A stretch of 64,000 bases of DNA. Source: Escherichia coli. Its GTDB lineage: Bacteria > Pseudomonadota > Gammaproteobacteria > Enterobacterales > Enterobacteriaceae. Of the stretch, positions 20,263 to 24,603 are shown one piece after another (position 1 is the stretch's first letter; every line of letters begins with the position of its first letter). The notes under the pieces were generated by a model that was not told the origin of the DNA, ran no database searches, and was given only the letters and a program-made list of their open reading frames with translations. The position numbers and the translations under genes are program-made. The stretch lies in the NCBI RefSeq assembly GCF_003334355.1, contig NZ_QOWP01000018.1; one strand, written 5' to 3'.

Positions 20263-20354
20263 TGCAAAATCCTGCTATTTGATTTGTATGAGTGATAAGT
20301 GTAACGCCGAATAATCGTCGTTGGCGAATTTTACGACTCTGACAGGAGGTGGCA

Positions 20355-21143
20355 ATGCTGGTTGCCGCAGGACAGTTTGCTGTTACATCTGTGTGGGAAA
20401 AGAACGCTGAGATTTGTGCCTCGTTGATGGCGCAGGCGGCGGAAAACGACGTATCGCTGTTTGTCCTGCCGGAAGCATTGCTGGCGCGCGATGATCATGA
20501 TGCAGATCTATCGGTTAAATCAGCACAGCTGCTGGAAGGCGAATTCCTCGGACGTTTACGGCGAGAAAGTAAACGTAACATGATGACGACAATTCTGACG
20601 ATTCATGTTCCTTCAACGCCGGGGCGCGCATGGAATATGCTGGTGGCACTTCAGGCAGGAAACATCGTCGCCCGTTATGCCAAACTGCATCTCTATGATG
20701 CATTTGCCATTCAGGAATCACGCCGTGTTGATGCTGGTAATGAAATCGCTCCGTTACTGGAGGTGGAAGGGATGAAGGTCGGTCTGATGACCTGTTATGA
20801 CTTACGCTTTCCAGAGCTGGCGCTGGCACAGGCATTACAGGGAGCTGAAATCCTGGTACTTCCTGCCGCCTGGGTTCGCGGGCCGCTCAAAGAGCATCAC
20901 TGGTCAACGTTGCTTGCCGCTCGTGCGCTGGATACCACCTGTTATATGGTGACGGCGGGGGAGTGCGGGAACAAAAATATCGGTCAAAGCCGGATTATAG
21001 ATCCCTTTGGCGTCACCATTGCGGCAGCGTCAGAAATGCCTGCACTCATTATGGCGGAAGTGACGCCCGAACGTGTGCGTCAGGTGCGCGCGCAACTGCC
21101 CGTCTTAAACAACCGTCGCTTTGCGCCGCCGCAATTATTATGA
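20355..21143 (+). CDS. ybeM: Carbon-nitrogen hydrolase (nitrilase-superfamily) protein
   Basis: 262-codon frame from the ATG at 20355 with AGGAGG Shine-Dalgarno at 20344-20349; C-N hydrolase fold, positional equivalent of K-12 ybeM. Confidence 0.8.
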
Positions 21144-21575: not shown

Positions 21576-22541
21576 TTACTTAACTTCCATCCCTTTCGCC
21601 TGCAAATCGGCGTGGTAAGAAGAGCGGACAAACGGACCGCATGCAGCATGGGTAAAGCCCATCGCCAGCGCTTCGGCTTTCATTTCGTCGAACTCATCCG
21701 GGCTAACGTAACGTTGAACCGGCAGGTGATGGCGGCTTGGCTGCAAATATTGCCCCAGCGTTAACATCGTCACACCATGACGGCGCAGGTCGCGCATTAC
21801 CTCAATAATTTCTTCATTGGTTTCACCCAGTCCCACCATCAGACCAGACTTGGTCGGGATTTCCGGATGCGCTTCTTTAAAGCGTTCCAGCAGCTTCAGC
21901 GACCAGTTGTAATCTGCACCAGGCCGTACCTGACGGTAAATACGCGGTACGTTTTCCAGGTTATGGTTGAACACATCTGGTGGCGTTGCAGTCAGAATAT
22001 CCAGAGCACGATCCATACGACCACGGAAATCCGGCACCAGAGTTTCAATTTTGATTTGCGGGCTTTTTTCCCGAATGGCAGTAATGCAATCCGCAAAGTG
22101 CTGGGCACCGCCATCGCGCAGGTCATCACGGTCAACGGAGGTGATAACCACATAACGCAGCGCCATATCGGCAATGGTCTGCGCCAGTTTCACTGGTTCA
22201 TTGGCATCAGGAGCTACCGGGCGACCGTGGGCAACATCACAGAACGGACAACGGCGGGTACAAATAGCGCCGAGGATCATAAACGTTGCTGTGCCGTGGT
22301 TGAAGCATTCCGCCAGGTTAGGGCAGGAGGCTTCCTCGCAGACAGAATGCAGGCCATTTTTGCGCATTGCGGCTTTGATGCCCTGGATACGTGTAGAGTC
22401 CGCTGGAAGCTTGATTTTCATCCATTCCGGCTTGCGCAGCAGGGCTTCGCGCTCTGTTGCCACGTTTTTAACCGGGATAAGGGCCATCTTATCGGCATCG
22501 CGGTATTTAACACCGCGTTCCATCACAATGGGTTTACTCAT
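21576..22541 (-). CDS. lipA: Lipoyl synthase
   Basis: 321-aa ORF with radical-SAM CxxxCxxC and auxiliary Cys cluster; recognised as LipA. Confidence 0.95.
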
Positions 22542-22749: not shown

Positions 22750-23703
22750 TCAAAATGCATTACGGATAACATCTATTACTCCGTGCAGGATGGGATCACG
22801 CAGGCTGAATTTGTTGTAGTGGATAGAGAAATCTATTTGCTCCTCATTTAAGGACGGAAAAGGCAGTTTTTCCAGCGGCCAGCAGCGGCTAAACAGGTTA
22901 TAAAAACGGCTGGGAATAATCGCTAACATGTCACTGTTGGCAACCAGTGCAGCGATTGTCAAAATGTTGTAGCTGGTGAAATTGATTTACCGGTCCGGAA
23001 ACATTTCTTGAACTCTCTGCCGCAGACCGCTGAAATTTTGCTCTTCCGGTAACAGAAGTACATGCGCAGCGTTGTCGATAGTCTCTCTGTCATCTTCTAA
23101 AGAGAGTAGTGGATTTCCCTCGCGGCAAATTAACACCATATTGTCGGTGAACAGAACATGATGTTGCACCGTACGATTGGTGCAAAACATGTTATCGATG
23201 ATGAGATCGGTTTGAAACTGACTGAGTTGGTTTTCCGCGTCGCTGATGGGCGGGTTGCGCAGTAAAAGCTGCGGATAGTGAGTTTTAATCGCCCGATAGA
23301 TGACAGGAAGGACCAGTGCTCCGACCGAGGGAGTGGTCGCAATAGTTATCGTTCGTTGCTTATCATAGCTTCCTTCGATATCCAGCGCGCCAAGAATGGA
23401 CTCAAGGCCCTGACTGATATACTCATGTAGATGCATCGCAAATGCGGTAGGAGTGACACCCTGGCCTTTGCGAATAAACAATGGGTCAGGGAATATAACG
23501 CGCAGTTTCTGAATAGACTGACTGATTGCCGAGGGGGTCAGATTAAGCACTTTCGCTGCATTAACGATCCCTTTATGTACATATACAGCTTCAAAAATAG
23601 TCAGAAGGTTAAGATCAATATTTCGTAAGGTTGTAAATATTTGTGGTTTACCTTCTGACGACTTTCTGCTTAAACAGGGTTCAATTTGATTATTACTATC
23701 CAC
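22750..23703 (-). pseudogene. ybeF: LysR-family transcriptional regulator YbeF, interrupted by an in-frame TAA stop
   Basis: ORFs 22987..23703 (HTH domain) and 22750..22962 (C-terminal effector domain) are in the same frame, separated only by a TAA at 22987-22989 (plus-strand tta); the continuous frame is 317 codons, the length I recall for K-12 YbeF. Confidence 0.6.
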
Positions 23704-23961: not shown

Positions 23962-24603
23962 TTAAGCGGTAATATATTCGAAGTCCGGATTGTTTAGTAG
24001 CGCTAAAATATTTTCCAGTAAACGTGGAGCAATATTATTAGTCGTCGCTTCGGGTTTCCATTGTGATATTTTAGCCATTTCCATTCCGGCATACCCACAA
24101 GGATTAATACGTAAAAATGGTGAAAGATCCATATTGACGTTTAATGCCAGACCGTGGAATGAACAACCGCGTCGAATACGTAAACCCAGTGAGCAAATTT
24201 TCTTTTCCCCAACATAGACACCTGGCGCGTCAGCCCGAGGATGCGCTTCTATACCCAGTTCAGCCAGGGTATTCACCACTGTTTGCTCAAGCAAGGTCAC
24301 CAGTTCACGCACACCGAGTTTACGGCGTTTCAGGTTAAGCAACACATACATCACCTGTTGCCCCGGCCCGTGATAAGTCACCTGCCCACCGCGATCGCTC
24401 TGGATCACCGGAATATCACCCGGCATTAAAATGTGCTCCGCTTTTCCTGCCTGACCTTGGGTGAATACCGGATAGTGCTCGACCAGCCAGATTTCATCAA
24501 GGGTACTATCATCGCGGGTATCGGTGAATTCATGCATAGCCTGGGAGATTGGCTCGTAAGGCTGAAGACCGAGCTGGCGGACAAGAATTTTATCCTGATA
24601 CAA
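23962..24603 (-). CDS. lipB: Octanoyltransferase LipB
   Basis: 213-aa ORF recognised as LipB. Confidence 0.9.

Follow-up and report, generated by a model that had tools for sequence, protein, structure and literature searches.

Q239*, a rare and probably null nonsense allele of the LysR-type regulator gene ybeF in Escherichia coli

Introduction

In a 64,000-nucleotide stretch of an Escherichia coli genome (NCBI RefSeq assembly GCF_003334355.1, contig NZ_QOWP01000018.1; the whole stretch is referred to here as the window), the LysR-type regulator gene ybeF is represented by two open reading frames (ORFs) that lie in the same frame on the minus strand and are separated by a stop codon. This arrangement raises the question of whether the stop codon is a true mutation or an error in the sequence and, if it is a true mutation, whether the gene can still yield a working regulator. 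In E. coli, Salmonella, Klebsiella, and Enterobacter, ybeF is flanked by lipB and lipA, and no role in lipoate synthesis has been demonstrated for it (PMC4398509).

Results

The interrupted ybeF frame

The minus-strand frame that runs from 23703 to 22750 contains 238 sense codons, a stop codon, eight further codons (INFTSYNI), a TTG, 69 more codons, and the natural stop codon. In the ORF listing it appears as two pieces, 22987..23703 (238 aa, GTG start) and 22750..22962 (70 aa, TTG start), and the tally of the joined pieces, 238+1+8+70, is 317 codons. The plus strand reads TTA at 22987-22989, i.e., TAA on the coding (minus) strand. A sequence-only reading of the window had described ybeF as split by an in-frame TAA at these positions, and re-translation returned every coordinate and count that it had given. 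The same reading had taken the joined frame of 317 codons to be of normal LysR length, in agreement with the NCBIfam model of the YbeF family, NF008554, which has 317 positions. The features of the locus are as follows:

22750..23703, minus strand: whole ybeF frame, broken at codon 239 (317 codons and the natural stop codon, by translation; collinear with K-12 b0629 / WP_000378026.1)
22987..22989, minus strand: premature ochre stop TAA, codon 239 (causal SNP at 22989)
22990..23703, minus strand: coding part of the truncated YbeF, 238 aa, GTG start (ORF listing)
23437..23613, minus strand: LysR-family winged helix-turn-helix (HTH), Pfam HTH_1, residues 31-89, retained (coordinates computed from residue numbers)
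22756..23358, minus strand: LysR_substrate effector domain, PF03466, residues 116-316, of which the product keeps 116-238 only
22753..22986, minus strand: codons 240-317, 78 sense codons, outside the truncated YbeF
22750..22962, minus strand: leftover 70-aa ORF, from TTG codon 248 to the natural stop (ORF listing)
21576..22541, minus strand: lipA, intact, downstream neighbor, 208 bp after ybeF
23962..24603, minus strand: lipB, intact, upstream neighbor

The order lipB-ybeF-lipA on the minus strand is the same in K-12, PSS-12, and E41. An early stop codon in ybeF may have a mild polar effect on any transcription that reads through into lipA; a scan of the 208-bp minus-strand spacer between ybeF and lipA found no promoter-like or intrinsic-terminator-like sites and lends this suggestion no support. 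The 70-aa ORF was considered as a gene of its own, or as a re-initiation product, and was rejected, because no AGGAGG-like Shine-Dalgarno motif was visible by inspection in the 20 bases before its TTG and because its similarity to the YbeF model is confined to the C-terminal end of the profile (positions 248-317 of NF008554). It is a by-product of mechanical ORF listing and not a separate gene, and the locus should be annotated as one ybeF pseudogene with an internal stop codon, not as two genes, a 238-aa regulator and a 70-aa ORF.

The base change at codon 239

A base-by-base comparison of the window with K-12 MG1655 found one difference in 1,061 bp, located at 22989, where the window has A in place of G on the plus strand and hence T in place of C on the coding strand, so that codon 239 is changed from CAA (Gln) to TAA. 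The sequence-only reading had offered this very substitution as an example of a single change that would account for the split. It had also recommended comparing codon 239 with K-12 and other strains; K-12, PigCaeca_1, PSS-12, and E41 all carry CAA at this codon in a 954-nt ybeF that encodes the 317-aa protein WP_000378026.1. Codon 239 is thus an in-frame stop codon here and a sense codon in intact orthologs, including those of the closest relatives. The repaired frame of the window is 100% identical at the protein level to K-12 YbeF (NP_415162.4 / WP_000378026.1), and the references end at residue 317, not at 238, which disposes of the idea that the 238-aa form is the normal protein. A Dcm-methylation hot spot was also considered as the source of the mutation and was rejected: the sequence context of codon 239, ACCGG-CAA-ATC, contains no CCWGG (Dcm) site and hence gives no evidence of a 5-methylcytosine hot spot.

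Close relatives and the polarity of the change

The window and MG1655 are 99.57% identical over 37.7 kb. A K-12 origin of the window was rejected on the grounds of this value, of the absence of a block of about 8 kb from ybeQ to hscC, and of the greater closeness of PSS-12, an isolate from human feces in Ecuador. PSS-12 is the closest complete genome; it has CAA at codon 239, and over 48 kb it is separated from the window by 10 SNPs and by no indels. When the 10 SNPs were polarized with MG1655, 7 were private to PSS-12 and 3 were derived in the lineage of the window, namely, the synonymous change A378A in dpiB (15692), Q239* in ybeF, and P114R in rlpA. Because Q239* is derived relative to both PSS-12 and MG1655, it is a recent change specific to this lineage, and the assembly is otherwise clean. 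The rlpA change (minus strand, 27176; Pro114 to Arg, CCG to CGG) is a second nonsynonymous change that is private to the lineage of the window.

Other carriers of the stop codon

Carriers of the allele were sought by exact-sequence look-up of the 238-aa product in public assemblies, which gave 24 to 30 matches, with ten places shown. In 4 of the ten places shown (L008-L011), the 238-aa ORF is a called gene that ends in a true TAA, followed by the rest of ybeF and then by lipA. Two of these four are identical to the window, L008 (ERR4578542) over 6.7 kb and L011 (SRR3823860) over 4.4 kb, while the other two differ from it in the flanking sequence: L010 (ERR9384453) shows 13 differences in 6.7 kb, and L009 (GCA_961210425.1) shows 24 differences in 6.7 kb, one of which is a synonymous SNP in ybeF. 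Besides the window, the Q239* TAA is therefore carried by four independent accessions, and three flanking haplotypes are represented in all. The 24 to 30 matches cannot all be counted as carriers, because at the other six places shown (L012-L017) a wild-type gene runs off the end of its contig; the contigs of L012 and L013 end in CGG-CA, and those of L014-L017 stop at the position corresponding to window 22990, before the variant base. The same contig-end artifact occurred at every product length tested, so contig breaks at codon 239 carry no meaning.

The sequence-only reading had left a sequencing error as a fallback, in which the real genome would have CAA and the TAA would be a miscall. 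A single substitution is the smallest possible error, and the allele is missing from the complete RefSeq genomes (see below), both of which would suit such an error. Against it, four other public assemblies or sequencing runs have exactly this TAA, two of them on other, distinguishable flanking haplotypes (L009 and L010), and its presence in independently sequenced isolates makes a one-off error very unlikely. The assembly also appears accurate: over 48 kb, no indels and just 10 SNPs separate it from PSS-12, and 7 of these SNPs are private to that genome. The error reading thus deserves very little credence, and Q239* is a genuine base change, not an assembly artifact.

Frequency and origin of the allele

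When 5,426 complete E. coli genomes were searched by megablast with 1,061 bp around ybeF, the locus was present in 5,424, and the best matches to the region, including that of K-12 MG1655, had 99.9% identity. A 61-mer centered on the variant matched 3,205 complete genomes, all with exactly one mismatch and none perfectly, and a 33-mer, in which every 28-base seed includes the T, had no match in the complete genomes at an E-value limit of 10. The Q239* TAA therefore occurs in 0 of the 5,426 complete RefSeq E. coli genomes and in only a few public runs. For every TAA haplotype there is a close counterpart with CAA: PSS-12 for the window, L012 for L010, and L013 and L015 for L009. The presence of TAA on three backgrounds fits independent mutations, as judged from the flanking sequence. 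The 1.3 to 2.5 kb around the SNP are identical or nearly so among the TAA haplotypes, and because of this near-invariance, transfer of a single mutation by short-tract recombination is also possible.

What the stop codon removes from YbeF

Against NF008554 (YbeF family transcriptional regulator, an equivalog model with a curated cut-off of 277 bits), the repaired frame scored 609.8 bits and covered positions 1-317 of 317. The 238-aa product scored 456.5 bits, above the cut-off, and covered positions 1-238 only. The score is thus reached and end-to-end coverage is not, which identifies the locus as the ybeF gene and its product as something other than an intact YbeF. The model for CitR, NF047710, was the second-best match, at 182.6 bits, below its cut-off of 400, and CitR is a different gene.

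In the Pfam analysis, HTH_1 (PF00126) was found at residues 31-89 (E=2.5e-14), upstream of the stop codon, and PF03466 was found in the repaired frame at residues 116-316, spanning model positions 5-207 of 209. Whereas K-12 YbeF (b0629) has 317 aa, the product here has 238 aa and is without the C-terminal 79 residues of the effector domain, counting Q239. The stop codon at 239 removes residues 239-316 of PF03466, about the last 40% of the domain, and a complete effector domain is absent from the product. The proposal in the sequence-only reading that the HTH would be kept and the effector domain left incomplete is thus upheld by the Pfam boundaries.

The best solved homolog, DntR (PDB 1uth/1utb), shares the two-domain architecture of LysR-type regulators (LTTRs) and aligns to YbeF residues 24-284 (E=7e-19). 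It is a distant homolog of YbeF and served solely to place the truncation point; in this alignment, Q239 lies opposite about DntR residue 229 of 1uth, inside the effector domain. In LTTR folds such as those of CbnR, BenM, and DntR, the C-terminal effector part completes both Rossmann-like subdomains and carries oligomerization contacts. The truncated YbeF would most likely be misfolded or unable to assemble or to respond to ligand.

Some truncated LTTRs still bind DNA, and it is conceivable that the 238-aa protein is functional, either by effector-independent binding of DNA or as a dominant-negative form acting on paralogous LTTRs, in which case the mutation would alter function instead of abolishing it. 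The product still has the HTH (31-89), the linker, and roughly 60% of the effector domain, and it retains its 456.5-bit match to the YbeF model. The cut falls mid-domain in the DntR alignment, however, so that instability is likelier, and the stop codons at 222, 229, 232, 275, and 289 and the large deletions described below fit a loss, not a specific gain. A retained or altered function is accordingly regarded as quite improbable, and a null allele is favored.

Other features of the window and the tRNA cluster

Several other differences from K-12 were observed in the window. At 37827-37864, the K-12 block of about 8 kb that contains ybeQ-ybeR-djlB-ybeT-ybeU-djlC-hscC (MG1655 locus positions 38502-46476) is absent, and rihA comes immediately after ybeL, an arrangement shared with PSS-12 and E41. 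An intact ORF of 262 to 264 aa represents ybeM (20349-21143, plus strand), a gene that K-12 MG1655 carries as a pseudogene (b4581); the PSS-12 and E41 annotations give it as deaminated glutathione amidase. Between gltI and lnt, there is a 625-aa ORF (42591-44468, plus strand) that the PSS-12 and E41 annotations name a rhomboid-family intramembrane serine protease; in K-12, this interval presumably holds IS5.

A tRNA cluster at 51682-52163 (minus strand), upstream of asnB, contains five genes, for Gln-CTG, Met, Gln-TTG, Leu-TAG, and Met. Its K-12 counterpart is a cluster of seven genes, glnX-glnV-metU-glnW-glnU-leuW-metT, and in comparison with this cluster, the window appears to lack one Gln-CTG copy and one Gln-TTG copy, a pattern that recombination between duplicated genes could produce.

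The tRNA genes bear on the possibility that the premature stop codon is bypassed, by an ochre-suppressor tRNA or by programmed read-through, and that full-length YbeF is made. A supB-type tRNA-Gln with a UUA anticodon is an ochre suppressor that inserts glutamine, and such a suppressor would restore wild-type YbeF exactly; a cluster with tRNA-Gln genes lies in the same window. Both tRNA-Gln anticodons in the window are normal (CTG and TTG), however, and none of the five tRNAs in the window has a TTA anticodon, so an ochre-suppressor tRNA-Gln in this cluster was rejected for the window. To our knowledge, no recoding signal is known for ybeF. A suppressor tRNA may be encoded elsewhere in the genome; overall, bypass of the stop codon is considered extremely improbable.

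Other natural null alleles of ybeF and comparison with lipA

The ybeF gene offers 21 transition routes to a stop codon. Exact look-ups of truncated products in public data revealed true single-base stop alleles at all five of the other ybeF codons tested, as follows:

Q222*: TAA, natural stop allele
Q229*: TAG, 141 index blocks, many on long contigs
Q232*: TAA, natural stop allele
W275*: TAG and TGA, 50 index blocks, including a 5.1-Mb chromosome
Q289*: TAA, natural stop allele

The neighboring gene lipA, whose protein is identical in K-12, PSS-12, and O157, was used as a control, for which 73 contigs were read in all. Look-ups for lipA W213*, Q264*, and Q276* gave no true stop codons, and all 28 places shown were wild-type codons at contig ends. 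Sites with a true stop allele thus numbered 6 of 6 in ybeF versus 0 of 3 in lipA (Fisher p=0.012), a comparison that is small (6 versus 3 codons, with at most 24 index blocks read per look-up) and that sets ybeF against a strongly constrained gene, not against an average nonessential one.

Larger lesions were found among the complete genomes, of which 1,056 of 5,424 (about 20%) cover less than 80% of the ybeF query in the megablast search. One class (L004) has an internal ybeF deletion of 392 bp at K-12 locus positions 2082-2473, about codons 175-305 and including codon 239; its remnant is annotated, for example in NZ_AP022044.1, as a frameshifted, partial pseudogene. Another class, with a larger deletion, is visible as a group with 43% coverage and in loci (L057-L060) where only about 820 bp separate lipB from lipA. 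In addition, one genome, NZ_CM172482.1, has an IS1 element (IS1X2) inside ybeF. These alleles inactivate the same gene as Q239* does, and they do so mostly within the effector domain. They differ from it in abundance: the ybeF deletions are fixed in large lineages that make up about 20% of complete genomes, and the stop alleles Q229* and W275* also occur more widely, whereas Q239* is a rare point allele. E. coli loses ybeF often, and among the many kinds of null allele of the gene, Q239* is a rare one.

YbeF, its paralog CitR, and the possible consequence of the loss

YbeF is an LTTR with a poorly defined function. BW25113 survives the deletion of ybeF, with altered expression of only 67 genes; lrhA is about 3.5-fold lower and the FlhDC iModulon is up, and YbeF has three ChIP-exo sites and no defined direct target (PMC9068703). 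CitR (YbdO) is an LTTR paralog that shares about 30% identity with YbeF and, like it, is encoded close to the cit operon; deletion of either citR or ybeF lowers lrhA and raises FlhDC-regulated genes (PMC9068703). On this basis, the phenotype of the strain is most likely that of a ybeF null, possibly with a modest derepression of flagellar genes.

At the start of the window, positions 1-131 lie inside an IS1 element, the end of which abuts dsbG, and the alignment with MG1655 begins at window position 132. In PSS-12 (locus L081), the gene after IS1A is ybdN, truncated at its N terminus, and citR (ybdO) is missing, an IS1-associated deletion. By analogy with PSS-12, the strain of the window may lack both of the paralogous regulators YbeF and CitR; citR lies outside the window.

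These relationships suggest a reading in which the loss is adaptive. Inactivation of ybeF would be positively selected in some niches, Q239* would be one parallel beneficial knockout, and the route would be a lowering of lrhA and derepression of FlhDC motility, perhaps jointly with the loss of citR here. Such selection would suit the occurrence of one nonsense allele on three or more flanking haplotypes, all of which have a closely related wild-type version, and the stop alleles at every ybeF codon tested, by both routes at W275. The two deletion classes and the IS1 insertion in complete genomes point the same way, as do the 3.5-fold decrease in lrhA and the rise of the FlhDC iModulon upon deletion of ybeF (PMC9068703), and the nearest relative, PSS-12, is also without the paralog citR. 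However, recurrent mutations are expected at any neutral site among very many E. coli runs, and relaxed selection gives the same pattern without a benefit. Furthermore, the TAA is very rare (0 of 5,426 complete genomes), and short-tract recombination could have spread one mutation, since ybeF is nearly invariant among these strains. An adaptive loss by this route is judged unlikely, and neutral inactivation of a dispensable gene is preferred to it.

Discussion

The explanation in which we place considerable, though not complete, confidence is that Q239* is a genuine mutation that makes ybeF a null allele, or pseudogene, which is kept because the gene is dispensable and only weakly selected. 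A spontaneous C-to-T transition at 22989 on the coding strand converted the Gln239 codon CAA to an ochre stop codon. Translation would then end after residue 238, leaving the N-terminal winged HTH and the linker and removing the last 79 residues of the effector domain, and ybeF would be effectively null in this strain. The allele has probably been kept because E. coli can do without ybeF and purifying selection on the gene is weak, and Q239* would be one of many independent natural inactivations of the gene. The sequence data themselves establish the base change, its polarity, its occurrence in other assemblies, the limits of the domains, and the wealth of other null alleles. From the domain boundaries, we infer that YbeF function is lost, and the allele is probably close to neutral.

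Q239* makes an ordinary strain-specific pseudogene of an often-lost gene. It adds one rare allele to a repeatedly inactivated gene and, taken alone, would not surprise a specialist. Its wider value is as a data point on the loss of YbeF, and possibly of CitR with it, in weighing neutral decay against adaptive rewiring of the lrhA/FlhDC motility circuit.
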